From NCBI GenBank assembly GCA_973895155.1, contig OZ316891.1:5861708-5925707 (forward strand): DNA of 64,000 nt, given 5' to 3'. The notes beneath the pieces were generated by a model. The model made no database searches. It was not told where the DNA came from and saw nothing but the letters and a program-made list of their open reading frames with translations. The position numbers were made by a program, and so were the translations under genes. This DNA comes from Marsupella aquatica. Taxonomy: Eukaryota; Plantae; Marchantiophyta. Positions 2,300 through 59,241 of this stretch are shown one piece after another. Position 1 is the stretch's first letter; the number at the start of each line of letters is the position of its first letter.

Positions 2300-4826
2300 A
2301 TGGACCGAGAGGAGATGGACGATAGGCGACGGCGACCGAAGCCCGGAGACCCTCCTGACCCGAGGAAGGACCGGTTTACGACGGGCTGGAGCACGACGTT
2401 GGTGGCTTTGTTCATCGGCGCTGCAATAGTATGCACGTCCTGAAACCCTTGTCTTCTCTGTCTGCCTTTTGTGGGCTGTCGTATCTTTGTCAACGCGAGT
2501 GTCTGTTTCTCTCGTTCAGTTGGCGTGCTACGGTGCTGAAGCTGTCGTCAATTGTTATTTCTACGGAGCAGACCTTTACACACGATGGGCTTGTTTTCGT
2601 TCAGATTGGCTCAGTTATTTGCAGGATTAGTTGTAGTTTTTTTTTTTCTCTCAAATTGTAGTTTGGCTTTTGCAGCTCCATTGTTACTGAATTAGGGTCT
2701 TTAGTGGCTGGCGAGAAATTAAGTTCTGGCCAATAGCAGTCAATCGGCAAATATTGCATTCTATAATGAGGTTGGAAAGTTTTCTTTTTCTTTTTGACTG
2801 CCGAATTCCTGTGAAATCATTCCGGTCGCAAAATTGGGGAGCTTCTCTGAAAAAAGTGATGGGGTCTTTGTCCAAGTGCCTTTGCAGATTTCGCACCTGG
2901 CTTCACAGCCTGGTTTTGCAATGTTTTTGGTGGCATAGTAGGCGTCGTTGGCATGAGAAATGCTAGGTAGTCGTCGAATGACCGGCTTCAAGCGAAAGCA
3001 CTGATATTGTCGGCACAATTCCGTTCCAAGTTCCACGAAAATCTAATTCCACTGGATTCAAGAAACGTGGATTGAAGCTCAAGACACGGTTCTTATCGTG
3101 AAAATTCCATATAAGATTTCTACAAATAGTCACTCTTACGCATTCAGAGAATCGCCTGCAATATTCTCATATCAGATATAACTTTTTCATGTCACCTAAA
3201 GTTCAACTAGCGAAATGAAACATGGAAGGAGACAATCCGGTTACGCTGGAAAATTAGAGTCAGTCTCCGACTTTCTAGAGTAGTGGGTTTACATTCAATA
3301 TGTTGATCTCCTGCTTTGGATACCAGGCAGTTGTTAGATTGACGGGCTGTCTCTTGCCGAGTGCCGAATTTTGGGTTTAGAGGCGAAAGAACGATTGGAA
3401 AGTCTCTAGGAAAGAAATAGCTTGCTAGATTGCTTGAATGTGGGAGCTAACTTAAATCTGTTGTGCTTACAATGTTCCAGGTTGGGAACATTATGTCTCT
3501 CCGCAGGCGTTTAGCAAACTTTCATAAATATAGCGAGGTACTTCGTTTATCCGTTCTTTGTAATGTTTCTGAGTCTTTGGGGCTCTGATATGACAGGCAA
3601 TCACCGAATTAGAGTTTAAATTATGCTTTACTGCAGAGATGGGTCTTGTTTCGCCCAATTTAAGGTAGTGGTCCTTAAAGTTTTCGTGTTGGACAGCGAT
3701 TAGAGACTAGCAAATATCACTCTCACAGTGAGCCTGGATAAGGGGATCCGTTTTGGTGGCTGTCTTAGGTCAGTGACTGTGAAGGAGAAATGGACTTCAT
3801 TCTATCAAGTTGGATAGATGACAAGCTGATTACATTAGGTTATTTCATCAATGAACTACTTGACTGTCAATTTTGAACGGCAGTTAATAAATCTTTTGGT
3901 GGAATCTGAATGGTGGAAGGGCAACAGTGCAAGGTCTGGTGCAACTTCACGGCAGGATACCAGTTCTCAGCAGCAAGGGAGGTCGCAGCAGCAGGGGCGG
4001 CATAGTTTTCACCAAGTGGATGGAGCTGAAGCTAGGCGAATATGGGCGGAGCATGTCAGGCAAATGGTACGAAATAGCAATATTGCCTGTTTCCGATATA
4101 TAAGTGATTTTTACATTGGTACCAACTTAAGTGCGATGTTGGGTTCTTGAACTTAATAAGTCGATGGTAAGGTGTTTGTGAGCAAAAGTTCTGAGGATCC
4201 CCTGAAGGTCGGCTGAAGTGGATCTTTCCTAAAGGTTCATAAGAAGTCTCAGCAAAAAGTGGAAAGTCACATACTGTGGGAATTCAAAGAGACGATCTTC
4301 GAACGCGTGTTAAGGAATATTGTCAGTTTGCAACTGAGTAAAAGCTTCTGGCAGAACTGAGTGGGGTGCCTTGTGAATTATGTTATAGGAACTCCTCAGG
4401 CGCAGGCAAGAGGCCTTTGACCGAGAGAGAATGCGCTACAAAAGAAACTATGACTCCTGGCAGGAGCGTCATGGGGACAAGTGGGATTGGAGGTGGCAAG
4501 GAACTAGGTGGGAATGGCAAGGAGAAAGCGAGCGAGTTTGGCAAGAGGAATCAGCCGATAATTGGCGGCGTGAAACTCAACGAGAAAGGCAAAGGAGCAG
4601 AGCGGATGCTGAACCTTCAAGGGGGACGAGTAACCCACAACATTATGCTGTACTAGGTCTCGACCCCTCAAGATCTTATACTGAGTCTGAAATTAAGGCT
4701 GCTTTCAGGGCAAAGGCTCTCGAGTTCCACCCTGATAGAAACACGACAAACAAGGCCGAGGCAGAGAAAAAGTTCCACAAAGTCATGGAAGCTTACAATG
4801 CTTTGAAAGGGTCAAAGTCAAAATAA
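2300..4826 (+). CDS. DnaJ/Hsp40 type III protein with an N-terminal hydrophobic segment and C-terminal J-domain; 4 exons: 2300-2428, 3481-3537, 3884-4066, 4389-4826 (~268 aa)
   Basis: All introns are GT..AG and phase 0. The joined frame reads MDREEMDD...WSTTLVALFIGAAI/VGNIMSLRRR.../...EHVRQM/ELLRRRQEAFDRERMRY...HYAVLGLDPSRSYTESEIKAAFRAKALEFHPDRN...AEKKFHKVMEAYNALK, a J-domain with the HPD motif. Confidence 0.85.
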
Positions 4827-6138
4827 AATCTTCTGAATCAGTGTTCGGAGCTCTCATGTGCAATTACCTCAGAGTTAGGCAATTCTTTGTGGCATTGGTT
4901 TCCCTTGTCGCCAAATAGGAGCGACCTTCTGACATTGCTATGCAGTTGCTTCAACTGCGTTACCTCTACAGGAACAAGCAAGGCGTTTTCACAAATTCTC
5001 ACCTGTCTGATGAAGAAGGGATGGTCCCTGCTCTTCCCATCTATCTTCTGTTATGCTCAAGTCCTACTCCGTCAGGATATTGGGAAAAATGGTAAACGAG
5101 AAGGGTTACATTTCCAATCAATGTATGAGTTTATTCATGATTATCCAGTGATTATTTCTGGGTTAGAAATTTATGAAACTAGACACCAGCGAATGTAAAA
5201 ATGGCTTCAAGACTAACTCACGAGCAAGACATCTGGGCAGCCTCGGCCCCTACATTTTCGTTTAGCAAGGTTACAATCAACGGCAACGTAAGGACACGTA
5301 GTCTAGGCATCAGTTGCCAAGTGCATGTCAGCAGCCAAATGTATGGTGCAATTGGCAAACACTACTGTACGGGCACGTAGTGTAGATACAGATCGATCAT
5401 TATTATTAGGTGGTTTGTAATGCCATCATGATTGCACTTCTTCGATCGATTTCCCCTTCTCACAAGTATGTACTTTTTATGTGTGAGAAATGAAGTACGT
5501 TATGCAAATCATTGAGCTGTCCAGTGTTCGTCGTGTGCAAGGGTTACAATACCTCGATCTCTCGCTCGTATCCTATCATATCCCCAACAGAGGGGAGAGG
5601 GCAACCGCAAGTCGGCCCATTCATCTCACGTACTCGCCAGCTCCCACTTTATATTCTTATTGATAGTTTTCTCTGTATCTCCTCTCGTCTTGTGTGACTG
5701 AACTCTGTTGGACCCAAATTAGTTGAAAAGCGAGGTCGAGGCGACAGGTCTGAAGGCCATTTCGAGCTCGACACTACAGATCTGGCAGTTGAGGGTGCGA
5801 TCGAACAGGTGCTTAATTTAGTTTTGGGTTGTGGTGTCGATCTCTGAGACGACGAGGACTGCAATACCCAGAGACATTAATTGGCGCGGATACATGGAGT
5901 CTAAAGTACGGTAGGAGGAGCAGCTATATATGTTCGGGTGATTTTTCTTTACAGACTTTTGTTGAGCTACGAACTTTAAACTTCTTTATAAAGAAACAAT
6001 CTTCATCATCGCTTCTACGCTCAGTTAACGGCCTCTGGATTTCTCGATGTCAAAATTTTAGATTTCGTTTGTACAAAAATCATCTTCGTCATCGTCTTCA
6101 TATCGGTAGAGTTCTTCGACTTCATAATCATCAAAGTT

Positions 6139-6348
6139 GTGTTTTGCCTTGCCTCTACTTTCTTCTCCTTATCACCAATTTACAATACTGGTCTGGGCTT
6201 TTTCATTATCTCCTTCCTCCTGGCTCTCATCCTCATCGTCGCGTGTTTTACCTTGCCTCTACTTTCTTCTCCTTATCACCAATTTACAATTCTGGTCTGG
6301 GCTTTTTCATTATCTCCTTCCTCCTGGCTCTCATTCTCATCGTCGTCC
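6139..6348. repeat. 104-bp direct tandem duplication (2 copies)
   Basis: GTTTT(G/A)CCTTGCCTCTACTTTCTTCTCCTTATCACC...CTCATCGTCG at ~6141 and ~6245. Confidence 0.9.
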
Positions 6349-9300
6349 CCGTTTGGTTTCCATAGAAACAGAGATCTGCGCCACAAAAGACCAAAATTTC
6401 AGAAAGGTTCGTTTCGACGAGGCCAGGCCAGGTTAGTTTCGAAGAGGGTTGCTAATTTAAAAGCTGAACTCATGAAAGCTTCCATAATCCTGCACCGTGT
6501 CAAGACAATAATAAACAAAGCCACGAAAATATCAACATAGCCATTACCGGCCTTGCGCTAAAGGAGACCATAGCATCTTGTGACAGACGGAGTTTGTGCA
6601 CTGATGCAATAGTTAATACGTTTCCACGACCTCATCCACCAGCTTCCAATTGCTGATGTCAAGAAATGCCATTTCAATCATCTCCAATGTCGGCTCCTGC
6701 CTATCAAACTATAGTTTAACCAAGCCAATGCAAAGAGCCCGTGCAAGAGCTCCTCCAAGGAAAAGACCAAAGTCAACAGCCCGAGAGTGTAGGCATCGAT
6801 GAGAACTATTGACAATCAGCATCTATTGAAATCGTGACTAGACAATCTCCCGGCTTGGCTTCTTCAAATCCCTGAAAAGATAGTCCCAGACAAGTCAATG
6901 GTTTCCTGAAAATAGCTGTCATTATCTTCCTACCAGAAATCGGAGAAAAGCACGCTCAATCCACGACTCTCGGATGTGAAGCTCGACCAACTGTGTTCAT
7001 CAAGCACTGGAAATCCCAAATTCGAGCCTGTGGTGAATTGGCCAGGATCACTAGGCGTCAGTTACCTGAAAAGGTAGCTTGCATGAAGAGCCGGGCATTC
7101 TTTTACTTATAGATTCCGTCTTTGCATTCAATTGCTACTGGAAGGTGACCCAATGCATAATCAGCATACGTTTCCCAGTGTGAATACGTACACGGCAAAA
7201 GACGCTAAATTTTCAATGTTCCCAATCAAGAGCGAGGAATCCTTCGCACAAAGATCAGTTTGAAATTCATTTTTCGTTACTATTCAGACAAACTCTCAGA
7301 TTATTTTCGACACACAACAGCACGACCTCCTCTTGCAAGGCAGCAAACCCAGAGATAGACAATAGGAAAACATGGAAGGTGTCCAGATAGTCGAGAGATT
7401 TTATTATGTGGTCATTACAAGTTAAGCATATATCTGAATCTACAGGATTGCAGTTCACAGCCACGATCTTTGCGCCCAGCATCGCCCTTGTTTTTCCGCT
7501 GCTTGACCAGTACGTCCGCGAATCTACCATGATGATCAAACCGGGGATCAAACAGCACTCAGCAATGTGGCTCCTGCAAGTTATCAGGGCTACTATCTTG
7601 TATCTAAATAATTTGCCATTTGAGTTTGAATCAATGGACCTGTGGCCGGTCTTTTGTAGAGGAAGCTCCAATGAACACTTGCATGTTAGCTGGACAGTTA
7701 ATCCTCGATAACTCCTTTCGCTAAGAGGTCTTCCACCCAAGAACATCTTCCCTCCTACGTGAACAAAGAGCACCTACGTGAACAACAGCACCAACTGGTA
7801 CATGAGCCCAACGTTCTCTACTGCCAACACAACATTTCCACTGGGAATTCACATCCATTGCATTCATCATCTTCCAACTTTCATGATGGACCTGAAATGC
7901 AACTTTCAATTCAAGAGGAGCAAAGTTTAGAAAAGAATGACAGGCAAATTAGGGTGTCTGAGGTCAGAAAATGAGACGGTAGTTAAATTGCCTGACCAGA
8001 TAAAGTCCTGCATCATCACGTTTAACTAAGTCTAAAGTCCTGCATCATCACGTTTAACTAAGTCCTGCAGGGCAAGAGTATACATTGCATTGTCAGAATG
8101 ATCGAGCAGCCATTGAATTCATTTAAATACCAGCCATCAGCATTCACCGTTTGGATGACATCCGGTCTCGAAATTATTAGTCAGTCCAGTTCGCTGTAGC
8201 ATTTGAAGCTGGCTGACTATAAATCAAACCGCGACGTTGTAGACACGGTGAAATCTGCGAAGTCACCAGTTAGGCCACGAAAGATATATATACATGAACA
8301 GTCGCAGCATACATATCATTGAACGTCACTATTAAACAGAGTTTCATATTAATGATTACGAGATTATCTTGCCACGGGGGAAGAACTCGATATGCTTTAA
8401 TTAAGCGCGTCTCTACTGTGTCAGAGGATGGGTGCGGCATCCAGATTAATGACTAGTGACATCTTCCTCTGTACGCATCGATCAGTAACAACGAGTTCAT
8501 TTCGGTTGCAATCGTAAGCATAGAGTAAATCGTTGCAGAGTAGATAGTGGGTGCGATAACATGATTGCTATGAAGCGCTAAGAAACTGAAGGATAACTTA
8601 TTGCAAGAGCAATATATCATGTTCTCGGTTTGAGACATACACCAGACTATTGACCGAAGCCGAAGCGACATGATTCAGGTACCGTAATGAAGATGTAAGA
8701 TTAAACCAAACCTAAACCAAACCCTAAACCCAAAGCTAGCAGGTCATGCATTCAGGAACTAGGGTCACTCCATAATCAGCTGAAATCCGGTCTTGATGTC
8801 ATTATGGTGTACTGTGGCCCGAAAGTAGTAGGCAGAGGTCTTTAGAACTGTAGAAGAACAAGGCCCACACCAACACAAAAGGCCGACCAAGATCCAACCC
8901 AATCGGCACGAATTGCAAAAGCTACCAGAAATCATTCGAGTAACCCCAGTACTGACAGAATGAAAGTGGATCTCAGGCAGGTGGGATCTTTCAACAATGC
9001 CTGGTTGACAAGCTATCTATATTTGATACTGGAAACTGACTAGAGACAATGATGAGAGCCGCACCCTGAAGAATATACCACGAAGAGAGTAGTGACCCCA
9101 AGGGTCAACTGAAGGCAAAGTTCAGGGACCATGTAAGTTCTCATTGGGACGCGAAATTACTTCTACAAATGATTTTAGAAAATTGTGACATTTGAGTATG
9201 AGGTTTGTGGAAACGCACGGGACAATGTTTGTGTTGAAACTTTGTCTACATTAGGTCTGATCGAGCTAGCAGGCAAGTACTGTCTCAGGTCGACAAAAGC

Positions 9301-9721
9301 GAGCATAAAAAGCCCGGGTATGTTTGGATCTGAATACCCCAATGCAAACAACTGGAGAGTGACAGCCACCTGATCGGGCAACCGATTCTGGTGCATACAT
9401 GTGCAAGTCTTCATCGTGACATAAAAGCCCCAAAAGCGCCACTTACGATTTAGGAAAACATACATCTCAAAAGGAGGAATTCGCCCCTAGCTAAATAATA
9501 TCATAAGCAAAGCCATTAGCAGCTTAACCTCAACATTTATCTTACAAGTGTCATCATCTGCCGCAGCAATTACTCAAAAAAGAAGATTTCATTCATCATC
9601 TGTCCTTCATCCGCTGCCACTGAATTACATGCAGCTTCCATTTTATCCAAAAAACTTGTAGTAAAAGCGAAGCTATGTACAGCCTGATTCTGTTGGTTCC
9701 GAGTAAATACACTTAATGTGC

Positions 9722-9976
9722 AGCTAGTCTTCATCGGCTCAATGATCGAAGAGAATCTCCAGACTGCTCTTGTTGGACTGCCGCAACACCAGTAACTTCA
9801 GTTCCATTGACGAGAGTCTCCAGACTGCTCTTGTTGGACTGCTGCAACACCAGTAACATCAGGTGCGGAAACCAACACCAGTAACATCAATTCAATGATG
9901 AGAGTCTCCAGACTGCTCTTGTTGGACTGCCGCAACACCAGTAACATCAGGTGCAACACCAGTAACATCAGGTGCG
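9722..9976 (-). repeat. Tandem triplication of the 3' end of permease copy 1
   Basis: TCTCCAGACTGCTCTTGTTGGACTGC occurs three times (~9756, ~9816, ~9905), with multiple ACACCAGTAACATCA units. Copy 2 has this block once. Confidence 0.85.
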
Positions 9977-11292
9977 GAAACCTCCTTGACGCGCAATATG
10001 TGCCTTCCATGGTTGAACCAATGAAAGGTCACATAACAGAGTACGTAGATGAAGCCGACCAAGGGGACCAGGTAAGAAACTTTGGTGGTAATTAGATCTG
10101 CAATGGCACCTTGAATTGGAGGGAAGACTGCGCCACCAGAGACGCCCATGACCAAGATACCAGCTGCGCTGCGGGTGTGCTTACCAAGGTTTGCTGTACC
10201 GAGAGCAAAGATGGTGGGATACATGGGTGCTTCAAAAAAGAATAGAGCAATCAAAATACCCACAGCAGCTTTGCCAGAGCCTATGCAAACGTAAGCGTTG
10301 AATGCAATGGCTGCCGAAGCATAGACCATGAGCAAAAAATCTGCCTGGAAGATAGTTGCCAGTGCTGTGGCTATAAATCGGCCCACAGTGAAGGTCATGA
10401 GAGCATACGACAACAAGTTGGAGGCGCTAGATGACGTGAAGCTTGCATTCTCCGTAGCGTAGTTGATAAAGAACGAGGCAGCAGTGACTTGAGCTCCCAC
10501 ATAACAAAACTGAGCAATGAAGCCAAAGATCATGTTGTACTGCTTCCAGATGGGGCCTTGGCTGATCTCCTCGCCAAACTCATTTGTAGCAAAGCTCTCA
10601 ACAGTAGAAGACTCCAACATTTCATTTGAGACTTCGGGGAGCTTGGTTACCAAGAAGAGAACTGCAATGGCAACACCAGCACAGGCCACAGCGAGATAGA
10701 CAAACTGAACGTTGACCAAGTTGTTTGCATTTGCTCCGCTGAAGAAGAACTTCGAGGCAATCAAGGGGCCGATGAAAGAAGCCAAGCCGTTCCATGATTG
10801 ACAAAATTGTAGCCTAGCCGAGGCAGATGCAGGATTACCAATTACCACTGCATATGAATTGGCAGCTGTCTCGAGAGTTGCAAGGCCACAAGCGATGACA
10901 AGAGTGCACACACAAAAGCCAGCAAAGGACATCAATCTATGGCTGTATGTGCTGAAGTGTGCCGTGGGCCAAAAGAAGATGGCGCCAAGAGAGTAAAGGC
11001 ACAGACCCATGAGAATAGTGACTTTGTAACCCTTACGCTTCATGACCGCAGCTGCAATTGGTGAGAAGATTAGGTATCCTCCACCAAAGTAGACCACTTG
11101 AAGACCTGTGGATTGAAGTTTGGTGATATTCAGAACTACCTGGAAGTGCTTGTTGAGTACATCGAGAAGTCCATACGAGAAACCCCAAAGAAAGAAGAGA
11201 GAGATGACAAGGAAGAGAGGGAAGATGAGAGCTCTACCCTTGAGAAACCCTGCCGCTAACGGCTTTGTAGAGATAGGCAAACCACCAGCCAT
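9892..11292 (-). CDS. FucP-type L-fucose:H+ symporter-like MFS permease (FHS family), intronless, 466 aa, fungal-like; intact copy 1
   Basis: ATG at 11292 (MAGGLP...). About 12 hydrophobic segments. Motifs LFFLWGFSYGLLDVLNKHFQ and ATLETAANSY correspond to E. coli FucP LFFLWAVANNLNDILLPQFQ and GCLETAANPF, with the Asp46 and Glu135 equivalents retained. FCYVGAQV and GGAVFPPIQG are also present. Confidence 0.9.
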   Translation of the reverse strand: MAGGLPISTKPLAAGFLKGRALIFPLFLVISLFFLWGFSYGLLDVLNKHFQVVLNITKLQSTGLQVVYFGGGYLIFSPIAAAVMKRKGYKVTILMGLCLYSLGAIFFWPTAHFSTYSHRLMSFAGFCVCTLVIACGLATLETAANSYAVVIGNPASASARLQFCQSWNGLASFIGPLIASKFFFSGANANNLVNVQFVYLAVACAGVAIAVLFLVTKLPEVSNEMLESSTVESFATNEFGEEISQGPIWKQYNMIFGFIAQFCYVGAQVTAASFFINYATENASFTSSSASNLLSYALMTFTVGRFIATALATIFQADFLLMVYASAAIAFNAYVCIGSGKAAVGILIALFFFEAPMYPTIFALGTANLGKHTRSAAGILVMGVSGGAVFPPIQGAIADLITTKVSYLVPLVGFIYVLCYVTFHWFNHGRHILRVKEVSAPDVTGVAPDVTGVAAVQQEQSGDSHH

Positions 11293-11520
11293 GATGTCTA
11301 CTTCGACCGCCTTCAACGAATAAGCTACTGGAACAAAGAGTACACGCAGAAAGCCTCACTATCAGCTCCCAAACAAAGGAAAACGCTAAAGGAAATGCCT
11401 GCAGGAAGGAGACACCCTCAGCTAAAGGCGCAAGAAAGATCTAGACACGGAGCAGGATAGCTTGCTAAGACTAGTGAGAAACAAGATGGAAAGAATGAGT
11501 TTGGTCGCTTCTCAAAGTCC

Positions 11521-11527
11521 TTATATA
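11521..11527 (-). promoter_or_regulatory. Putative TATA box of permease copy 1
   Basis: TATATAA on the minus strand ~230 bp upstream of the ATG, conserved in copy 2 at 17822-17828. Confidence 0.55.
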
Positions 11528-13469
11528 CCTGCAGATGAGACATGGATGAACGGATCCCAAAGTACTCGCTACTGACTCCTTACACACGATTGTATCGGCT
11601 GACACAAGGATCAGAAATTGTACTCCGTAACTGACGATTCAGCTGACACACGGATGAGAAAATGTTTTCCTGAGTAACGACGTACGGAGTCTTTACCATT
11701 TAGTTAGGGATAGGATCATGATTGATTTTCTATGACAGGCAAACAACAACAGGAAATGACGTGTCTCTTCTAATTTTAGTTTTTTAGGGTATTGCGGCTA
11801 AACATTTTGAGGATAAATAAATAAGCGCCAGAAAACTCGTTTTTAAATTTATTATGACAATGAAAGGCTGGATGAGAGAGGTAGCAGTACCCCTGGATAT
11901 GTTAGTCTGTGAGGGGGATTCTGTGAGGGGAAGAATGTCGTAGTTGAAGATCTTTGATAGCTTTTTTCAATTGCACCAGTACTTGATTTGTTCATAGTTT
12001 CCAAATGCTCGAGACTACTGTATATAAATTTTAATTGCCACATTTCTAGAAGCAAGAAAACCTCGAACTTTCACATTGGATCCCATTCTCATGCTTAATT
12101 CGAGCACAGAAATCTTGCAAAGTCTGAAGATCGGATTAAGCATGAGAATGGGTGACAAATTATTGTAAGTAGGTTGGTCCAAGTAAATATGCTTAGAAGT
12201 CATCGAAAGAGTACAAAACCCATGAGAGGAGCTCCTACTCAACAAACCTGCAGTACTCCGAGCAGCTTTAGCTGTCATTGAGATATTCTTAGAGGCGCGA
12301 ACTCTTTATCCAGCAGCAGATTAAGCAAACCTAACTTGTCTGCAGAGAAGATCAGTAGACGAACAGCCAAGGTCTGAAGCAATACGTACGTGCATGTGAA
12401 GAGCACCCCCCAGAGCAGCCTGCCCACAAGTAAGGAGCCTACCAAGGTGGTGGGCATGGGCGATCAAACCACCTGGCCTATGCTTTCACAAACCTAAGTG
12501 TGAAGAGCAAACAAGCGGACATGCAACCAATAATCTAGGTGAGAGGCTCTAGGAGCAAAGAGCAGCCTGGCAGAAGGGAAGGGGGTACCGAGGTGGTTGG
12601 CAAGGGTGATGATATCATCTAGGTTCCATAAATTTATTGGCTGATGGATCGAAGATACGATTGAGAGCCCGCACGGATAATTGAACTTAGCAGCGCGCAG
12701 CACATACTGGTGCCATACTTGAAGACAAACACGAATGTAGGGAGTATCTCGATCTAGCAGCAGCGCTGGTGCCCTCTGGTGCCATACCAGCCTTAACTTT
12801 GTACTCAAGAAATGGGATCCTATGGACTTCTGGATTTGGGACCTCAAAGCTGAGAGCTGCGCCATCTGTAGAAAAGTATAGTGGGTCCTTTGCGCTGAGT
12901 GACAGGCTAGTTTATCTACAACAATCAACAGTGCCAAGTGACTAATTGCAACTATATATATGCTCAATTATATAATGTCCATTCCCATATGCATTGTATC
13001 TCTCTGCGGCTGAAGAGGCGAGTGATACAAGTGTCTCTACATAATAGCAAAAGGGAGCTTGCACAGATTGATCGAGTATGTAGACCCAAGTACTAGGTGT
13101 CAAGTCTGGTTCCTTCAATACTGTTGGCTATGGTACGTGCCTTAAGACCGTTATCAGGAAATTGGTTTCTGAGTACACCGTCCACATAATATAATAGCAC
13201 AAGAACTTGTCTTGGGTTTCATTTGTCTTCTTCAGGGCTAGGAAGGGACAGTCACATTTGGAGATGAAGAAGTCAGTAATTTCCCCTTGTGACATGACAT
13301 CGATCATACTATTTGTCATATTAATTATAACGTACTACTGTGTTCTGAAATTGTTTGCCTCAATTTATAAGGTTTTTTCCCTGGCGTCTACCCAAGCTAT
13401 CCAAGTTTTGTATAGACGAGCCTGAATGCCCATTTTTTGAATTCAAATGGAAATCAGGACAACAAGCAT

Positions 13470-13610
13470 GCATGATTATCATTTGACATACATCATATCC
13501 ATTCATGAGTCTTTCCATCCATACAGTGGGGCCATAAAATTATGGTCTAGAGGCTTCACTCTGGAAACCTAAACCCCAACTCTAGTTTGGGGTTTGCACT
13601 TTATAAATAT
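13470..13610. repeat. Dispersed repeat, inverted copy at ~34010-34146
   Basis: CATGATTATCATTTGACAT...TATGGTCTAGAGGCTTCACTCT...CCCCAACTCTAG matches the reverse complement of 34010-34146. Confidence 0.7.
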
Positions 13611-13937
13611 TAAGATGTTGTTTGATGCTGTTGTAAGTATAAATTTCTCTGTGTTGGTCAAGTGCAAGCTAGAAGGGTAATAAAGGAGGCACAAAGGACT
13701 AGCTCAAAAAGGAGAGGGAAAGGACTAGGAATGCCATTAAAATTTAGTTGAGCACATTGCCAAAAAGGTTAAGCACGCTTCCAAAAGATTTGGGACACTT
13801 AAAAAATGTTGTGTACACTTCCAAAAAGATTGGGCACACTTGCAAGATCTAACCTTTCAATCTCATCAAAACAATCCTTACCATTCCATGTAACATTTTG
13901 GTCTTTTTGTCCTCTAGTGATTATTTTGAATATGAAC

Positions 13938-14226
13938 CTCGGGGGTTTCACTTCCACAAAAATGGCACATCACGTGTGACGGAGGATAGGGTCGTTTTAT
14001 TGGTTTGAAGGGAAGATTTAAGAATTTTTGTAGAAGAACAAGAGTGTCTTTTAAATTCAATTTTGAGACTTATAAGAACATTAGGGTCTTTCTAACCAAA
14101 TATATTCCAAGAATATTCCAACTTTATAGGGATTGAATTTTTTTTTTTTTTTAACATTTTAGGGGGTCCGAGGCCTAAAAACGTCGCAAGGGATGGGGGA
14201 GGCATCCATATAGTGAGACCCCCGAG
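13938..14226 (+). mobile_element. MITE, ~290 bp, 14-bp TIRs and 8-bp TSD (hAT-like TSD length)
   Basis: TIRs CTCGGGGGTTTCAC ... GTGAGACCCCCGAG. Flanks ATATGAAC (13930-13937) and ATAAGAAC (14227-14234). A homologous inverted copy lies at 41073-41342. Confidence 0.8.
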
Positions 14227-17200
14227 ATAAGAACCCATGTACTTTTTGTGGAGAAAATGGAGATCCTTTTAGCCCGGGTACACAACTCTTGTATAATAGC
14301 AGGGGTCTACATTTTTATATGGACTAAAAATTAGTTATGAGAAAAATTAAAATTTGGAAAACTTGGGTTTGTTGTGCAGTTAGTTTTGTGTTTTGATGAC
14401 TTGTGAAATATAAGATCTAGAAGTCTATTGCAACTTCAGGCATTTAGCAATTATCTAGTCAGTCTTTCAGAATGCCCCTAATGAAGCCTACATCTAGTTT
14501 GGAACTATCTACACAAAGTGCAGTTTATACATGTGTGTCACAATAATAAGTTTTGGCACATACAAGCTTCTTATTTGGAGAGAAGCACAAATATGCAAAG
14601 AGATGTTGAAACTTATGCTATAAATTTGACCTACTTTGGAACCATTTCATCCTTGATCATGCCTTTTGGAGTAAAGGCTGGGAATTAACCACCAATCAAT
14701 AATTTCACTAATTCTGAAAATTCTTTTTTCCAAAGTGGCTCGGTGAAATTTCCAAATAGTATAGATCAATTGTCCAAAACTTGGAACTGGAATTTCCAGA
14801 ACATTGTTTCAAGTTTCCTAAAGTCCAATCAAAATTTCCAAATCCATGTAGTCCTGCATGTCTGTAGCATTCACTTTTGGCATAAGAATTTGGTGGAGAT
14901 ATGTCACACATGACCGGGCACATGACTAATATCACAGAATCAAGGCTTTGAAATTAAATGCACTATTTCATTATTAGTCACTAACAGGCATAGAGAAGTC
15001 CATAACATTTCTATAAGTCCTTGTAATAGAGCGCTATGAATATCCTAGAACATCCCATCAATTATGTTGTACAAATCTCCAACTTCCTACATAATGATCC
15101 TAGAATGTCCCTCACTCTAGGCTCTATAATACATATTTGAGCAAGTAACTTTACTTTATGACTTAGTTATTAACCTTTTTATCTCGGTTGCAAGCTAGCG
15201 TCTCTAGGAAACAAGTTTTTAAAATTAGAAGCAAGGTCCATAGTTTTTGAACTTCCCAAACAAATCCCCACTTACTTGCGTATATGGGCCAGAATGACCA
15301 TCAAGTAGAGCCTTTGCCATGTCATTGATGTTATGTTCACTCAAATCCTCCATCGATGGACCACATTGCACAATATTCCTTACATCCCAAGAAATCTTGT
15401 CTGCCGTGTGATCAATCAAGGACGGTAAAATTATCCCTAATGCCAACAACTTGGTGCCCCAAGATTAAGTGAGTCCCACAAAGATAGTGCACGCTCACTA
15501 AAGATGCCAAATTAGTGGTTTGCATGAGAGCCATGGGATTGATAAAGACATGATGCAAAGTGGATGCCAAACTGTGCATGTTTGTTGTTGATACAACAAA
15601 CAATTAATTAAAGACATCCCCCAAACCATGCACTAAACACGCTCATAAGACTGTGTCTCAGTTATTGGACATGGTGGCCAGGTGGGCACTATGGCAGAAT
15701 AGAGTAATCATCAGGGTAATCATTAGAGATCTATGGTTCTCAATGCGGAAGGCAAACAAAGAATCTTCCTTGAGAATGCTGTATAGAACGTGTGGGAAGA
15801 TGGAGGTAGCCAGATACCTGCTAAGAGCTTGTCAGGTGAAGGTTATGCACATTGTATTATCGATCCAGGGGCTTTGGGTTTACATATGACATGTTTGTTG
15901 ACTTGTGCAACTCCTTATCAAACATTTTTCAAACATGTGTGTTAATCTGAATGAAGTTCAGCCCAAGTACCCCATCAATTTTTGAGGTATTACATACTCT
16001 AAATCCCTGGGTGCCACCTCAGACACATGCATGAACGCCTCCAATTAGACTACATCCTCGAAATACCCCAGAAATACCCCCACACAAGTGGGATATGGAC
16101 CATCCTCACATAAGGGAATTGGATGGTGTGCATAAATTGGATGGTTGCAATACACATTATCCAGAATAAATGCATGGGTGCCATCTAGACACCTGGGTGC
16201 CTCCAACTAGACCACATCCCAAAATACCCTCAAAAATACCCCCAGCGGTATCACTAGATATGTAGGTTGAAGACACCATTTAGTGGATGATAATGGGAGA
16301 AAAACACACCATTCAAGAATCACCCTGGCCGCACTAAAGTGGAATGGTTGTACATAGGGTAAATTGCCTGGAAGTACATAGGGGAAAGATTGAAATACAC
16401 AAAATGTAATATTAATTATAGCCTCGTACATGTGGGTTTACATAGGTGATTTGGCAGGAATCCCTACTTCTTTGTTATCAAACAATGAATTCCCAGCAAA
16501 ATATTGGGAAATTCCCTGCACTAGTACCATGCATACCCTCCTAGTGTTTATGATATTATTTATCAGGTGTTGTGAGATGACATTCAAATTTGGATTGATG
16601 GAAGTCTATATATTTAACAAACATACTATATGTCGGTAATAATCATCAAACATTCTAGCATTAATTTTAGACTTTGAAGCTTTCCTTATACATGTCCTTC
16701 CAACTGGACTTCAAACACACTTGAAAGTACTTGTCATGCCATAGGTCCTAATCATTTCAGAACTCAAAATGACTTCAAAACATGCATAATGTTACTTAGA
16801 CAATTAAACTTTATCACCTTGTAGCCTACCTTAGTCCTTGACACTTGTGGATAGACAGATCGAAGTAAGGAAGTGGTGCGTTAGGCCTTAAATACCTAGT
16901 TAGTCTTTCCCTATAACCCACCATTTGGCCCTGAGGGAGGAAGGAAGGAATGACTTACTGAATTATGGGCTACACAACCCAATTTCATGGGTATCATAGT
17001 GGGGGAATCATTAAATTTCATGTATTAATTTAAGATTGAATAAAAATATCCAGGACATATTAACGGGGTTTTGCTGCCCCCACCACTCCCGATTAGAAAT
17101 TGACCAAACGGCTCAGATTTTGCCAAAGATTCTTGGAGATTGAAGCGCTGGCTTCTTTGAAAGCGGATGGAACAGGCCGGGAACAGGCCCTGAATACTGC

Positions 17201-17821
17201 TACAGTACCTTCCTCAACAGCTCCGGGATGTAAGTATATAGTCTGAATGAATTTGACACAAAATTCGAAAGGGGCCAAATAATGCATAGTAGCTTTTTAA
17301 ATGTCATCCACTTCTAGTTTGAGTGCTTGACGCTTGCCAAGTGTAGCAATAAGAGCCCGAATAAGAGGGGTAAGTTGATGGCCCTCAACTCCCATCCTTG
17401 CTCTCCCTTTCATGCCATATCCCCCTGACAGACTAACAAATCCAGAGGTATCGGCTAACCGGGCTCTCATCCAGCCTTTCATTGTAATAACAAATTAATT
17501 TAGAGACGAGTTGCCTGGGGCTTGTTTATTTATCCTCAAAATGGTTGGCTGCGGTATACTACAAATTAAAACTAGAAGAGACAAGTCATTTCCTGTTGTT
17601 GTTTGCGTGTCATACAAATCAATCATGACCTTATCCTAACTAGGTGGTAAAGACGACACGACTTAGTTAGTCAGCAATACATTTTCTCATCCGTGTGTCA
17701 GCTGAATCGTGAGTTACTGAGTAGAATTCCTCATCCTTGTGTTAGCCGATACAATCGTGTGTAACAAGTCAGTAATAAGCACTTCGGGAGCCGTTCACCA
17801 TATATATCTCAGCTTCAGCGC

Positions 17822-17828
17822 TATATAA
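17822..17828 (+). promoter_or_regulatory. Putative TATA box of permease copy 2
   Basis: TATATAAGGACTTTGAGAAGC is shared with copy 1 and lies ~235 bp upstream of ATG 18062. Confidence 0.55.
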
Positions 17829-18061
17829 GGACTTTGAGAAGCAAACATACTCATTCTTTCCATCTTGTTTCTCTTTTGTCTCAGCAAGCTATCTGTTCCG
17901 TGTCTCCATTTTTCTTGCGCCTTCAGCTGAGGGTGTCTCCTTAATTCCTGGAGGCATTTCCTTTGTTTGTGAGCTGATAGTGGGGGGAACCTGATAGTGG
18001 GGCTTTCGTGTGTACTCTTTGTTCCAGTAGCTTATTCGTTGAAGTGGTCCAAATAGACATC

Positions 18062-19428
18062 ATGGCTGGTGGTTTGCCTGTCTCTACAAAGCCGTTAGCC
18101 GCAGGGTTTCTCAAGGGTAGAGCTCTCATCTTCCCTCTCTTCCTTATTATCTCTCTCTTCTTTCTTTGGGGTTTCTCGATGTACTCAACAAGCACTTCCA
18201 GGTAGTTCTGAATATCACCAAACTCCAATCCACAGGTCTTCAAGTGGTCTACTTTGGTGGAGGATACCTAATCTTCTCACCAATTGCAGCTGCGGTCATG
18301 AAGCGGAAGGGTTACAAAGTCACTATTCTTATGGGTTTGTGCCTTTACTCTCTCGGGGCCATCTTCTTCTGGCCCACGGCTCACTTCAGCACATACAGCC
18401 ACAGATTGATGTCCTTTGCTGGCTTTTGTGTGTGCACTCTTGTCATTGCTTGTGGCCTTGCAACTCTCGAGACTGCAGCCAATTCATATGCAGTGGTAAT
18501 TGGTGATCCGGCATCTGCCTCTGCTAGGCTACAATTTTGTCAGTCATGGAACGGTTTGGCTTCCTTCATCGGCCCCTTGATTGCCTCGAAGTTCTTCTTC
18601 AGCGGAGCAAATGCAAACAATCTGGTCAACGTTCAGTTTGTCTATCTCGCTGTGGCCTGTGCTGGTGTTGCCATTGCAGTTCTCTTCTTGGTAACCAAGC
18701 TCCCTGAAGTCTCAAATGAAATGTTGGAGTCTTCTACTGTTGAGAGCTTTGCTACGAATGAGTTTGGCGAGGAGATCAGCCAAGGCCCTATCTGGAAGCA
18801 GTACAACATGATCTTTGGCTTCATTGCTCAGTTTTGTTATGTGGGAGCTCAAGTCACTGCTGCCTCGTTCTTTATCAACTACGCTACCGAGAATGCAAGC
18901 TTCACCTCGTCTAAGGCCTCCAACTTGTTGTCGTATGCTCTCATGACCTTCACGGTGGGCCGATTTATAGCCACAGCACTGGCAACTATATTCCAGGCAG
19001 ATTTTTTGCTCATGGTTTATGCTTCCGCAGCCATTGCATTCAACGCTTACGTTTGCGTAGGCTCTGGGCAAGCGGCTGTGGGTATTCTGATTGCTCTATT
19101 CTTCTTTGAAGCACCCATGTATCCCACCATCTTTGCCCTGGGTACAGCAAACCTTGGTAGGCACACCCGCAGCGCAGCTGGTATCTTGGTCATGGGCGTC
19201 TCTGGTGGCGCAGTCTTTCCTCCAATTCAAGGTGCCATTGCAGATCGAAACACCACCAAAATTTCCTACCTGGTTCCCTTGGTCGGTTTCATCTACGTCC
19301 TCTGCTATGTGACCTTTCACTGGTCCAACCATGGAAGGCACATTCTGCGAGTCAAGGAGGTTTCCGCACCTGATGTTACTAGTGTTGCACCAGTCCAACA
19401 AGAACAGTCTGGAGACTCTCTTCCTTGA
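18062..19428 (+). pseudogene. FucP-type permease copy 2, frameshifted by a 13-bp deletion at 18178/18179
   Basis: Copy 1 reads GGTTTCTCG-TATGGACTTCTCG-ATGTACTC and copy 2 reads GGTTTCTCG-ATGTACTC. The ATG 18062 frame stops at 18205; the remaining frame is open to TGA 19428. Confidence 0.85.
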
Positions 19429-20156
19429 GCCGATGAAGGCTAGCAGCACATTAAGTGTACCTACTCGGAACCAGTAGATGTTTTCGAAGTGCACTTGATT
19501 AATTAATTGTAGGAATCAGGCTGTACATAGCTTTGCTTTTTGTGTATATTTTCGATGGGATGGAAGCTGCATGTAATGCAGTGGACTTGGAGATGGATGC
19601 ACCAGAATTAGATGGCTATCACTCTCCAGTTTTTTAGGGTATTCAATTCAAAAACATACCGCGGCTTTTTTTTTATGTTCACTTTTGTCAACCTGAGACA
19701 GAATTGGCATGCTAGCTCGATCCGGGGCAGGGCTCGATCGACCTAATGTATACAACGCAAGTTTCAATACATAAATTATCCGTGCGTTTCCGCAAACCTA
19801 ATAGTCGATCAGATGTCACAAGCTTCTAAAATCAATTGTAAAAGTCATTTCACATCCCAATTAATATATGAGAACTTGCATGATCTCTGAACTTTGCCTT
19901 CACTTAGTCCTCGGGGTCACCACTCCCTTCGTGGCACATTCTTCAGGGTGCGACTCTCATCATTGCCTCTCCTCAGACTCCAGTATTACATATGGATAGG
20001 CATATATTGTTGAAAGGTCCCACTGCTCGAGATCGACTTTGCCACCAGCTAGTCAGTATTTGGGTTACTCGGGTTGATTTCTGGTAGCTTTTGCAGTTCT
20101 TGCCGATTGTGTTGGATGTTGGTCGTACTTTTCTGTTGGTGTGAGCCTTGTCCTTT

Positions 20157-27520: not shown

Positions 27521-30500
27521 ATGTCTTCAGCGCAAGTTCGAGCGTTCGGGGCAATTGTGGTGCTCGGCGCCGTGATGTCCATAGCTATGACTGCAGTCCA
27601 TGCTGAGTTTTCTTCTTCCAATCCGTCCTGTCCAACAGGTTTCGCTAACTTTGGAGACTCACTGACCGACACTGGCAATACCGCTGATGTGTTCCCCTTC
27701 ATCACGGATGCGGAGAACCGCCCCTATGGCGAGACATTCTTTGGGAATCCTGCAAAACGATTCAGCAACGGGCGTCTCGTGCCCGACTTTTTCTGTGCGC
27801 TCTTCACAATTTACTACTTTCTTATCTACTACTTTCCTAGCTAGAACTTGGACTATTGTCATGCACCGCCCCTGGCTCTAGGGAAGCATCGATTGGAATG
27901 AGGGCAACATGAACTGACACAAATCAGATTATGCTTTGAATAATTTCAAACCTTTTCAGTTTTGGAACACAGTACGTCATTGAACGTTCGCGTCTTCTAG
28001 AGCTTTTGGCGACCCCTTTATTTAGGTTTTCGTTAGTATTTATTTTACTAATAAGCATTGTTTGAATATTTACAGCTCTAGCTTTCAAGAAGCCACTACT
28101 GGATGCGTACTTTTCAGTCGCTTCATTCGACTACGAATACGGGGTGAACTTTGCAAATGCTGGAGCAACTGCGGCTTTCAGCCCTAATGCAGTTACGCCG
28201 GTGTCCCTAACACCTGTGCAGACGAGTCAATTCATCCGATTTCAGAACAGCGTGGCAGCTACTCAAAATCAAATCGGTACGTAGGGCGATCAAACTTACG
28301 GGGTTCTCACAACTTTCATGCTAGCCACTATACAACCACTACCAGTAGAATTGAACGATGCTGAGTTAATTTAGATATTCTAACTGGTAATATTGCCCAG
28401 TTTAACGCGAGGTCGTTGGAGGTGATTCAAGGCATGATAATGTCAATGATATATTTGACAAAATGTCACAATAATTACCCGCAAACAGGAATGATTACTG
28501 ATTCAAAAGTGGTAAACATAGCTGGTTTCTTGAACTGGAACAAAAAGGTCAAAGCTTGACAACTCTGTCAGACAGTATTGGTCTCCCAAGAAAAATTGTA
28601 CTCACTTATTTATCATTATTCGATATATCACTCGGATTCGGTAGTCCGTCAAAATTTCTTCCCATTAATATAATGATCGAATACTTAGTCCGTCGGAATT
28701 TTTTCGCATTAATATGGTTTTCATTCTGGTTTTCTGGCGATCAACAATATTCTGAAGAGGATGCTACCAGATACCTGCAGATTCAGTCTTCGGGTACAAC
28801 CGACGAAGGCTTCAGTATCTGAAACAAGGAAGCATATGCAGTCCGGGCCGAAATCCTGAGAATTTTTTATCGATATGGAATGTTCGCTATCATTGAACAA
28901 GGTTTTCAAATCTGCCAAATGATTAAAGGTTCTCTCTCTGCTGGCATGAATTGCAGGATGTGTTGATTTCAAGGAAAAATTGCCCAGTTTGACGACTCCA
29001 TGGTCCAGTTGGCTGTACACTATCGCCGCTGGCGGTAATGACTTGTTGCCTCCAATCGAACAGGGTGTACCAGTCTCAGTAGTCAATGATACCCTTGTAC
29101 CACAAGCAGTCAACGGAGTTGTGGCTGCAATCGTTGTAAGTATATCTGATGGGATGCTCGTCCTTTCAAGTAAGAAGTTTCTGAACATCCATGCCAGCCC
29201 GCAACGAGCAGCCAGTGTGTTCGACTTGAGAACCTGTATTACATAGACTAACTTGGCGAGCAGACGATAAATGGAATGATAGCGTATACATGTTTCTATT
29301 ATTTTCCCGTATGGCATCGATCTTGGGAAGACTTTAGAAAGCACGAATAGCTGATTCATTTAAATTGGTGGCAAAGCGTCGCAAATTAACTTGAAATGCA
29401 ATCCTAGTGGGTCAATGTTTTAATTAGACTTGATTTCAAATGCGGCATCACATATCTGTTTGGCACATGCCAAATTGCCAATGCTAGAGCCTTCTATCTA
29501 CCAGAAGTACGCCTTCACCTGGTTCTGTTAATTAAAGAATCTCCACAGCTTTGTTATTGGAAGCTCAATATACGTTGCGTAACATGCCTTCTCGCCAATG
29601 TACATGCAGACTCTGTACCAGAGGGGCGCACGACAGTTCCTAATTTTCGGCATTCCTGCCAGTGGCTGTTCGACTGTCATCCTCACTTACCTGAGAAATG
29701 CAAACAATTCAACAGACTTTTTGGGCTGCAACATTGCTGTCAATAGCGTTGTTCAGCACTTCAACAGTCTCTTGCTCTCTAATATTAAATCTCTACGCCT
29801 AAACTTAACGGGAGCCAACATAGCTTACTTCGACTACTACAGCGCCAACATTGCGATTATTTCAAAACCCCTCCCTTTCGGTACGTGTCACTTCTATTGG
29901 TTTTTGCCCTATTTGTGTTCTCCCGTGAAGTGTTGACCTATGTTGTCCCTGCGGGAAGGTTTTTAAAAGATGTGATGATAGCAATGCAAGGATAACGGCT
30001 TCAGATATTTGTTCTTGTCCTGGTTTACGGTCCTGGATTAGATTTACATGCAGGTACGCCGTGAGACCCGCGCTTTCTAATTAGCAGCGTTTAACATATA
30101 TACGTACTGACAGCTACCTAGATGCCCTGACAGAGGTGTGCTTACAAATTGGTGAGGACAGAACTAGAGCCTTGTCCATATATCGTGACGCTAATTTCGA
30201 GCCTTCCTGTCCACTCTTGCATAACAGGATTCGATCCTGCGCTGACCACGACAGCTTGCTGCGGAGCTCCTGGAGTGGGGACTTTGAACTACAACCCGGC
30301 TGTGACATGCGGGCACCCAAATCTGGGCTCGAACAACTGTAACAACCCAGATCAGTATGTAAATTGGGACGGTGTACATTTCACGGAGGCTTTCTACCGG
30401 CAGATTGCTTCCTTTGCCTTGAATGGCCAATACACTGACGGGGGCATCAATTATGTGAAACTCTGCAACCTTGACTTTTCAAAGTGGGGCGCCGGAGTCA

Positions 30501-38075: not shown

Positions 38076-38880
38076 TGAATTTTCTGATGTCTCTATAGAC
38101 GCGAGAGAGTCAGTTCTCACGACGACGAATTAAGCAAGTTTCTATCGAAATCGAAGTTTCTATCGAGTACTCTCTCTTCTGATGTTTCTATGACGAGAGA
38201 GAGTCAGTTCTCATGAAAACGAAGGAATCTTCTATAGAGGTCCCTCCTCTCTAGTTCTCATGAAGGTCTCTCAGTTGACATGAAGCAGAAGGAATACTCT
38301 CTCAGTTGACATGAAGGCGAAGGAAAACTCTCGCGCGCTCTCGCTTTCTCTCCTGTGCAGCTAAACTGTGAGACTCCCCGATAGTCATATCTCATACCTA
38401 AGGTCCCCTTAAATATCTACTGTCCCCTCACTTACAGCCCCTGTTAGAGGAGCATTCGAAGCTTTGTTACCACATCTAGGTTCCCTGTTAGAGGAGCATT
38501 CGAAGCTTTGTTACCGCATTAGGTTTGACTGATACTTGACTGATCAGTTGGGAGACCTTATATATGGTGATCTAAATTTTAACGTGTAGCAAACTAGTGA
38601 CCCCTGGTAGCAGGTCATTGAGCCTGATATGCACTGTATTCACTGCCAAGCCCAAGGATAAATTTAAAAAATCAAAATAATGCTTTTATCTAACTAAGTG
38701 TTGTGTGCAAGAACAATGGATGAGTAAGTTCCTTCTCAAAGGAACCAATATTTTAAGCTTAGTTTATGAATTTGGAGACCCCATGGAGCACAAGGTTGGT
38801 TTATGAATTTGGAGACCCCCATGGATCCACACATTTCCCAAAATTTGAACTTATTTAATTAATTGTAATAATTAACCCAA

Positions 38881-41072: not shown

Positions 41073-41342
41073 CTCGAGGGTCTCACTATATGGATGCCTC
41101 CCCATCACCTATGATGTTTTTTTAGGCCTGGGACCCCCTAAAATGTAAGAAAAATTATTATTTTTCAACTCCTATAAAATTGGTTAGAAAAACCCTATTA
41201 TTCTTATAAGTCTCAAAATTGGATTTAAAAATCCCTATTGTTCTTCTAAAAAATATTTTTAAGTCTTGCATTCAAACCAATAAAATGACCCTATCCTTCG
41301 TTGCACGTGATGTGCCATTTTTGTGGAAGTGAAACCCCCGAG
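41073..41342 (-). mobile_element. Second MITE copy (family of 13938-14226) with 8-bp TSD
   Basis: TIRs CTCGAGGGTCTCAC ... GTGAAACCCCCGAG. Flanks CCTATACC (41065-41072) and CCGATACC (41343-41350). A further partial internal copy lies at ~40820-40950. Confidence 0.8.
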
Positions 41343-54381: not shown

Positions 54382-55185
54382 TCACGTTTCATAAACTAGT
54401 ATAGTTGACGAGAACACCGTGTTCTCAGAAGACTTGGCCCGAGGGTGTGGGAATTTCGGCGGAGAATGAAGCTCTTGAAGGTGCATCTGCAATGCTGGAT
54501 TCGCGTGGAAGATCCCCGTCACGAACTCCACGTGCTCTTCAGCAGAAGGAATCGAAGATGTGACGCTGGGACGAACCCTAATGGCCTCAATCCATTTGTG
54601 TATTCTGGGAATCTCCATCTGGCCAGGAATGACAAAGCCGTCAAACTTCTCCAGAACCAGCAGAGAAGTGGAGAAAGGAGCGAGTACCGCATCGAGATAC
54701 CCGAATTCGAACCCAGTAAAGAAGGGCCCATCGACGGAATAACTCATCATTGCTGCGTCCACCATTCGCACGAACTTGACGGCACTCTCCATGGTCGCTT
54801 GCTTCAGGGGACAGCCGGGCTCGAGTTTCATGCAAGTGTCGAAGACCGAACTGTACCCTCGGTGAAGGAATTCGGCCCAGAATCTGACTTTGGCTCTCTC
54901 GTAAGGGTCCTTGGGCATCAGTGCAACGCTCTGTGGAAACACATCTTCCAAGTACTCGAGAATGACCAGCGACTGTGAGAGCGTTCTTCCGTTGTGGATG
55001 ATCACCGGAACCTGTCTGTAAACGGGATTCGTTTCCAGAATGAGCGTGGGCTTTTCGGGCAAGGTGACGTAGATGGGCTCGAACGGAATGCCCTTCTCCA
55101 ACAACGCTATCTGTATGCGTTGCGAATAAGGACTGCAGCTGTGCATGATCAGTTTCACCTCTACATCTGAATTGCTGCCCATCAT
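54382..55185 (-). CDS. Glutathione S-transferase, tau-like, intronless (267 aa)
   Basis: SPYSQRIQIALLEKGIPFE, LILETNPVYRQVPVIIHNG, SQSLVILEYLED, LMPKDPYERAKVRFWAEF and PFFTGFEFGYLD (N-capping box) match the GST tau pattern. Confidence 0.9.
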   Translation of the reverse strand: MMGSNSDVEVKLIMHSCSPYSQRIQIALLEKGIPFEPIYVTLPEKPTLILETNPVYRQVPVIIHNGRTLSQSLVILEYLEDVFPQSVALMPKDPYERAKVRFWAEFLHRGYSSVFDTCMKLEPGCPLKQATMESAVKFVRMVDAAMMSYSVDGPFFTGFEFGYLDAVLAPFSTSLLVLEKFDGFVIPGQMEIPRIHKWIEAIRVRPSVTSSIPSAEEHVEFVTGIFHANPALQMHLQELHSPPKFPHPRAKSSENTVFSSTILVYET

Positions 55186-58677: not shown

Positions 58678-59241
58678 ATGATGCTCACAACACTCGCAAG
58701 ACCTCTCCTTTTCTCGTCCTTCTCGACGATGATGTACCCGAATCTAGTCATAAATCCTCTAGTGATAAATCCTGCCTACAATTTGTCGCGCTTCTTCACC
58801 CACATCGGATGCACGCCACGCCACCCACAGCGAGCTTTCTCCCCTCTTCAATCGATCTCTTCTCGTAGCTGCTGCAGCAGAATGTTGTCGACCTCGACCT
58901 CGTCCAGCGCAGGCGCAACGCTGAAGAACGAATACCTCGTCATCGTACCGGACCACCCCAATTCGCTGCAGACGCGCCTGTCCTTGCGCGAGAAGCATCT
59001 CGAGAACGTCAAGCCTCATGTGCAGGCTGGATCCGTGCTCTTGGGCGGCTCGATTCTCTCCCGCCACCCCAAGGAGGGCGAGCAGCCGGACATGGTGGGC
59101 AGCGCGATGGTGATCAAGGCGGAGAGCGAGGAGGCGGTGCGGGAGTGGCTGGCTGCCGATATCTATGCTAAGGGCGGCGCCTGGAATGTGAACGAGGCCA
59201 AGATCTACCCGTTCCGCTCCGTGGTCAGGACAGCTATGTGA
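58678..59241 (+). CDS. YCII/YciI-related (dimeric alpha-beta barrel) protein, intronless, fungal-like, with an N-terminal extension; alternative start at 58882
   Basis: EYLVIVPDHPNSLQTRLSLREKHL...LLGGSIL...MVGSAMVIKAESEEAVREWLAADIYAKGGAWNVNEAKIYPF fits the YciI R-x-x-H-L and D-x-Y pattern and closely resembles ascomycete YCII proteins as I recall them. The core is strongly GC3-rich. Confidence 0.85.
   Translation: MMLTTLARPLLFSSFSTMMYPNLVINPLVINPAYNLSRFFTHIGCTPRHPQRAFSPLQSISSRSCCSRMLSTSTSSSAGATLKNEYLVIVPDHPNSLQTRLSLREKHLENVKPHVQAGSVLLGGSILSRHPKEGEQPDMVGSAMVIKAESEEAVREWLAADIYAKGGAWNVNEAKIYPFRSVVRTAM

Follow-up and report, generated by a model that had tools for sequence, protein, structure and literature searches.

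Evidence for a fungus-derived FHS-family transporter gene maintained in a leafy-liverwort chromosome

Exploring a 64,000-nucleotide stretch of the Marsupella aquatica assembly (contig OZ316891.1; hereafter the window), we asked how an open reading frame resembling fungal L-fucose permeases came to lie among plant genes, and whether it is kept there. A sequence-only reading had described an intact, intronless 466-aa MFS frame with fungal-type motifs between genes with plant introns, and had proposed a fungus-to-plant transfer. The frame and the motifs quoted for it are present, and the four-exon DnaJ gene and the multi-exon GDSL gene confirm the plant introns of the neighbours (Table 1). On sequence grounds the data support well a fungus-derived, selected FHS transporter in a liverwort chromosome, a kind of transfer already known from a moss.

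Table 1. Features of the window, in order of position (position 1 is the first letter of the window)
Feature	Position	Strand	Description
DnaJ-domain gene, host neighbour	2300..4826	+	4 exons, GT-AG introns, 268 aa spliced
Local repeats derived from the C-terminal coding segment	9694..9970	-	extend beyond the stop codon; X1 contigs break here
Copy 1, intact FHS/FucP-family MFS transporter gene	9892..11292	-	466 aa, intronless ORF, 12 predicted membrane helices
Upstream region co-duplicated with the gene	11293..11919	-	86% identity between copies, gaps excluded
Putative core promoter TATA box TATATAAG	11520..11527	-	235 bp 5' of the ATG; no intervening ATG
Very high-copy host repeat between the copies	13150..14600 (approximate)	.	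depth in thousands, runs X1-X3
Copy 2 upstream region	17419..18061	+	TATATAAG at 17822-17829, identical to copy 1 TATA box
Copy 2, inverted duplicate, frameshifted	18062..19428	+	13-bp deletion after codon 37
GDSL lipase gene, host neighbour	27521..30500 (end approximate)	+	multi-exon
GST gene, host marker	54382..55185	-	best named match Calypogeia fissa, 75%
YCII-domain gene, host marker	58678..59241	+	intronless; best match C. fissa, 75%

Family, fold and coupling residues of the predicted protein

The 466-aa protein scored 48.4 bits against Pfam MFS_1 (PF07690; cut-off 33.4), and its structure model, built on a 130-sequence alignment (pLDDT 89.8), has 12 long helices. A fold search with this model returned MFS proteins, with E. 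coli FucP on top (TM 0.70/0.78) and ahead of the next match by seven orders of magnitude. By sequence, the only solved relatives were the two E. coli FucP entries (PDB 3o7q and 3o7p; E 1.6e-48), and the closest profiles were those of FucP/GluP (TIGR00885, E 1.7e-66; TIGR01272, E 6.6e-43). The protein is a member of the MFS and of the FHS family (TC 2.A.1.7, FucP domain). Beyond the fold, it shares with FucP the residues W36, D44, E141, Q165, N168 and Y358, which align to W38, D46, E135, Q159, N162 and Y365, in agreement with the earlier statement that the Asp46 and Glu135 equivalents are retained. D44 occurs in 120 of 121 homologues, and E141 and N168 in all 121; the roles of FucP D46, E135, N162 and Y365 are described in the accessible parts of PMC3824880 and PMC3417520. 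The protein is unlike FucP in its identity of 29%, in its score on the FucP profile and in several pocket-side residues: N42, N43 and N45 of FucP are replaced by Y40, G41 and L43, M361 by E354, Q364 by M357 and I391 by V384, all of them residues common to the fungal homologues.

The sequence-only reading had named the protein an L-fucose permease; the family stands, and L-fucose would be one of several candidate substrates. On TIGR00885, the FucP equivalog, the protein reaches 225.1 bits, below the curated cut-off of 280.4, as does the fungal orthologue P0007 (224.9). The model is a bacterial one, so the low score weakens "is FucP", not "works like FucP". Aspergillus niger RhtA (FHS, TC 2.A.1.7), the one fungal FHS member for which we found a characterisation and, by that account, the first eukaryotic member to be validated, carries L-rhamnose without competition by L-fucose, and FHS members carry various sugars (PMC5161314). 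Because the score lies under the TIGR00885 cut-off and RhtA, a rhamnose carrier, gave no indication of using fucose, we take "fucose" as a family label only. By description, RhtA and the window protein are both FucP-domain MFS transporters of fungal type; the name Aspergillus is absent among the best 120 matches, and RhtA probably belongs to another subfamily.

Placement of the gene among the fungi

The homologue search scored 7997 candidates, 6912 of which passed E 1e-20, and the best 120 were listed. Organisms were named for 60 of these 120, all 60 of them ascomycetes. Helotiales headed the named matches, and the first 11 named, at 77-83% identity, are Leotiomycetes (class checked for three). 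No plant name appeared among the best 120 of the 6912 matches, which reach down to 67% identity and include 60 rows without a name. Of ten more distant representatives, the nine with a name were one ascomycete, six basidiomycetes, one chytrid and one mucoralean; homologues from the last three groups, at 42-55% identity, diverge below the transporter gene. In a tree of 35 rows under LG+G4, rooted on four bacterial-type rows, the gene fell inside an ascomycete clade with an SH-aLRT of 100, and forcing it outside all named fungi was rejected (p-AU 0.00024). The 60 nameless matches could hide plant sequences and in this way favour a vertically inherited streptophyte transporter that was lost in most plants; with the outside-fungi placement rejected and the more distant fungal homologues branching below the gene, we give vertical inheritance practically no credence. 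The check for a streptophyte clade was thus negative, and the proposal of a transfer from a fungus into a real plant chromosome held up.

Within the ascomycetes, LG+G4 placed the gene among Leotiomycetes in four of six tree runs (SH-aLRT 86-94); the mixture-model runs gave a weak or open placement, the 48-row tree being a polytomy. Three other arrangements were not rejected by AU tests: a Leotiomycetes group that excludes the gene (p 0.24), a sister position of the gene's group to every named ascomycete in the clade (p 0.53) and a grouping with Dothideomycetes (p 0.055). We consider Leotiomycetes (Helotiales) the likeliest donor class, a choice held with moderate confidence. A direct Hyaloscypha donor was not supported, grouping of the window copies with H. 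finlandica giving a p-AU of 0.023, and of 0.13 when the proteins P0027 and P0033 were added. These two, each a single Logan protein, are the stable partners of the window copies (support 97/87 in the 48-row mixture-model tree) and share seven and nine rare residues with the gene (median 2). Long-branch pull between them and the gene is possible, because some unrelated rows also share 7-8 rare residues. As a set, the window-specific residues occurred in none of 150 distant representatives. The plant copies are fast-evolving: their stem measured 0.19-0.34, and Helotiales tips about 0.05-0.2. Synonymous sites were at or near saturation against all four fungal loci compared (pS 0.65-0.78), which means either an old transfer or an unsampled donor.

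The locus in the plant chromosome and its two copies

Identity of 77-83% to Helotiales, colonisers of leafy liverworts, is also what fungal contaminant DNA joined into a plant assembly could give, and the sequencing runs bear on this. Six runs were matched, and five of them, from three studies and with two organism labels, hold 20-94% of the words; these five (X1-X5) cover 30 of 30 bins of the gene and its flanks. In X1, possibly the window's own sample, eight flank contigs without differences had depths of 18-26; depth was about 24 on one copy and 16 on the other. X5 belongs to another study: there a contig at 10291-11764 differed by 4.1% and seven flank pieces by 2.3-6.7%, so that gene and flanks diverged together. 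Run X6 (organism C, share 0.05) was not counted: its pieces are short, they cover 17 of 30 bins and some of their loose ends resemble fungal homologues. The contigs listed in X1-X5 break at repeats, and the longest bridge takes in coding sequence and 470 bp of its upstream side (X5). None of those listed reaches from the coding sequence into any spliced plant gene, a point in favour of contamination; linkage comes from the assembly and from the patterns of depth and divergence, which in X1 and X5 are flank-like and speak against the chimeric join that the sequence-only reading had wished to see checked.

Composition and context gave the same picture. The two copies had CpG observed/expected ratios of 0.49 and 0.47; the window as a whole stood at 0.59, and the fungal-type loci, 18 of 18, at 0.72-1.19. 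CpG is a soft marker, as the GC-rich host genes GST and YCII keep 0.93 and 1.04. Neighbours of fungal-type loci, sought in the window with 1312 segments against 26 eukaryote-type loci, gave no match. The gene is flanked by plant genes and present in related plants. With the same stretch found in three studies, a high-copy host repeat lying between two copies that have diverged, host-like CpG depletion and the synonymous saturation against fungal loci, fungal contamination of this locus is unlikely, and for a contaminant joined into the assembly we see a very slim chance.

The host markers further along the window point to a leafy liverwort other than Calypogeia fissa itself. GST had seven matches, and the four that are named are all C. 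fissa, a leafy liverwort (Jungermanniales). The YCII gene lies 3.5 kb from GST; the accession numbers of their C. fissa orthologues differ by two, on one scaffold as on a second, an adjacency that matches the GST-YCII order in the window. The YCII gene is itself 69-75% identical to eight environmental proteins, its only named fungal match being Hyaloscypha variabilis (50%), and from sequence it is possibly a second, older fungal-derived gene common to Calypogeia. Elsewhere in the window, an intronless 872-aa ORF (35457-38075, minus strand) with two PAM2 motifs and RRMs is of the plant (streptophyte) poly(A)-binding-protein-interacting type, has a long acidic, repeat-built N-terminal part and is likely a retrocopy. 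A retrotransposon integrase remnant lies at 38872-39781 (plus strand; Pfam rve, E 2.3e-7), and two weak short-chain dehydrogenase matches at 45476-47236 (plus strand; E 0.004 and 0.002) are probably exons of one spliced gene.

Two structural claims of the earlier reading stood in part. The TATA box is indeed identical at both copies; this carries little weight, because 30% of 8-column windows in the duplicated upstream region are identical between the copies anyway, and we rejected its conservation as evidence. Compared with fungal loci, the upstream region of copy 1 had no match among the matches listed. The ORF does lack introns, but this is not distinctive, since the GST, YCII and PAM2/RRM genes are also single long ORFs. 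L008 and L016, fungal genomic loci 6 and 13 kb long, show no gap of intron size; among 12 eukaryote-type transporter loci, seven have intron-sized gaps, in varied places, two long genomic ones have none and three are uninformative or short. Because two long genomic loci of this type also do without intron-sized gaps, retroposition is not needed as the cause of intron loss.

The second copy that had been announced exists, broken by a frameshift. The copies lie head to head, and the blocks 9892-11919 and 17419-19428 match at 89.5%. The 13-bp deletion in copy 2 is flanked by short direct repeats, and the remaining ORF, 376 aa from 18298, is without helix 1, including D44, and most of helix 2. Inverted homology also extends beyond the gene (8405-9409 against 19584-22879, 74-79%); this shows that duplication took in a larger block, which insertions have since split. 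Part of the high-copy repeat between the copies (13938-14226) matches 41073-41342.

To the question of maintenance, the comparison of the copies over 453 codons gave 49 synonymous and 15 replacement differences (dS 0.167, dN 0.015, dN/dS 0.088; binomial p 1.5e-18). Because all differences between the copies arose after duplication in the plant genome, this selection acted in the recipient: the protein was kept by purifying selection inside the plant genome after duplication. The terminal branches of the two copies are near equal in the tree (0.025 and 0.029), which suggests that copy 2 broke recently. A real transfer that is now silent or decaying, with selection in the past only and copy 1 following copy 2 into loss, appears improbable. 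The frameshift of copy 2, the repeat-expanded tail of copy 1 and changes at fungal-invariant sites (E82A, V170L and R375S, in both copies, alter residues near-invariant in fungal orthologues) would fit decay, but copy 1 has an undamaged frame and every proton-coupling residue, replacement changes are few and alike on both branches, and the gene is kept in related plants of two other studies.

In organism B the gene region (10067-11764) is covered by single contigs at raised depth in X3 and X5: 62.8 in X3 against 27-37 for identical flank contigs, and 7.2 in X5 against 4.2-5.4 for the flanks. These gene contigs carry a mixture of copy-1 and copy-2 letters, which suggests that the two copies in organism B were homogenised by gene conversion. 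Across 2500-17000 of the window, some X3 contigs are identical to it and others differ by 1-5%; the X3 source is a hybrid, polyploid or introgressed relative.

Known cases, proposed history and substrate

The sequence-only reading had set the gene against angiosperm sugar transporters, a frame that does not fit: the host is a liverwort, fungal genes are common there, and the transfer of an L-fucose permease to a moss was already published. The accessible part of Dong et al. 2025 gives a mean of 229 transferred genes per bryophyte species (PMC12513842), and that of PMC12454661 documents the repeated independent capture of one gene, NAS, in bryophytes. As in these recurrent captures, a few-intron fungal gene lies here amid plant genes, is lineage-restricted and belongs to a function acquired repeatedly. 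For the Physcomitrella L-fucose permease, a table row and the legend of Fig. S51 in Yue et al. 2012 state an ascomycete origin (GI 167997115; PMC3493653), confirming Richards et al. 2009, and Yue et al. enter the gene under mosses only. The permease of Physcomitrella (Physcomitrium) patens and ours are alike in transporter family, in the direction from ascomycete to bryophyte and in the proposed sugar-uptake role; ours differs in its liverwort host, its 77-83% identity to Helotiales, its local inverted duplication and the measured purifying selection. We found no liverwort case of L-fucose permease transfer in the literature, a search whose scope ended short of most subscription journals and of the HGT tables of Dong et al., which may list this gene; the word fucose is absent from the main texts of PMC12513842 and PMC12454661 and from the accessible portion of PMC11228847.

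Are the moss and liverwort genes then one transfer or two? A single ancient one, with an early bryophyte as recipient and loss across most lineages, would make our gene an orthologue of the Physcomitrella permease. The moss gene is likewise ascomycete-derived, the sister position to the clade's named ascomycetes is not rejected by the AU test, and with plant copies evolving this fast a moss orthologue could rank below the best 120. Set against this, no plant name appears among those 120 of 6912 even though C. fissa proteins in the database match two neighbours at 75%; the LG+G4 runs place the gene in Leotiomycetes, with the mixture-model runs weak or open; the moss gene is moss-only in Yue et al.; and independent capture has the precedent of NAS. 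We regard one ancient transfer as unlikely, and a transfer independent of the Physcomitrella one as probable. It would be the second capture of this fungal sugar-transporter family by a bryophyte, probably an independent one, now with selection measured in the genome, and capture more than once would indicate that this way of taking up sugar is truly beneficial. The general picture is unchanged, fungal genes being already frequent in bryophytes.

Together, the data make it quite probable that the leafy-liverwort chromosome holds an old ascomycete-derived FHS/FucP gene whose product is predicted to be a proton-driven importer of simple sugars. In the history that we propose, a piece of DNA with this one gene would have entered the gene-poor stretch between the DnaJ and GDSL genes, where no credible family was found between 4.8 and 27 kb (148 scanned of 282 six-frame segments of at least 60 aa). 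The inserted gene would then have come under the TATA promoter and been duplicated, copy 2 breaking recently. A preprint describes rhizoids of leafy liverworts as home to a helotialean fungus, Hyaloscypha hepaticicola (bioRxiv 10.1101/2025.04.01.646537). Such Hyaloscypha would be a plausible contact for transfer, with the reservation that the gene is not grouped with Hyaloscypha.

For transport, the analogy with FucP (PMC3824880) suggests that D44 would take the proton first. D44 would then hand it to E141, freeing Y358 so that sugar binds, and the sugar-loaded halves would rock inward. The plant plasma membrane carries a proton gradient able to drive such transport, and this gradient would drive uptake here. 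The cargo would be 6-deoxy sugars or pentoses (L-fucose, L-rhamnose, L-arabinose, D-galactose) that cell walls, litter or microbes release. By judgement, we would tentatively put a monosaccharide other than fucose or rhamnose first as the main substrate, fucose somewhat behind it and rhamnose as a weaker candidate. Among the Pfam matches of 107 ORFs beside 17 eukaryote-type loci there were no fucose-pathway families and hence no clue to the substrate. The imported sugar would find a use in the salvage route by which plants turn fucose into GDP-fucose. In Sclerotinia, expression of the orthologue SS1G_08328 rises 4-6-fold at a late stage of plant infection (PMC5372324), an induction that fits the use of plant-wall sugars. 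We found no functional test for the large fungal subfamily of the window protein; the short single exon and its natural broken twin make an easy assay, which would give that subfamily a substrate.

A wider scenario is speculative, and we think it rather doubtful: that a moss, leafy liverworts and small animals each acquired the same fungal FHS sugar/H+ symporter family in a separate event, the one in liverworts being old, including P0027 and P0033, coming from rhizoid Helotiales and giving partial mixotrophy on deoxy sugars. If true, the borrowed fungal transporter would let the plant draw such sugars from litter, from wood or from its interface with symbionts.

Some homologues of the family turned up in other settings. 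Three, at 61-64% identity, lie in AT-rich DNA (flank GC 0.28-0.35; L003:93-1391, L006:2110-3501 and L015:536-1947). The one in L003, whose source is likely a bdelloid rotifer, adjoins ICA69/arfaptin and UAA-transporter exons with short introns, an animal-type context. These homologues stand apart from the window gene in maximum-likelihood trees, and grouping them with it was not rejected (p-AU 0.14). A Lipomyces protein, P0041 (75%), falls amid filamentous-ascomycete sequences in the trees, a possible fungus-to-yeast transfer in the same transporter subfamily.
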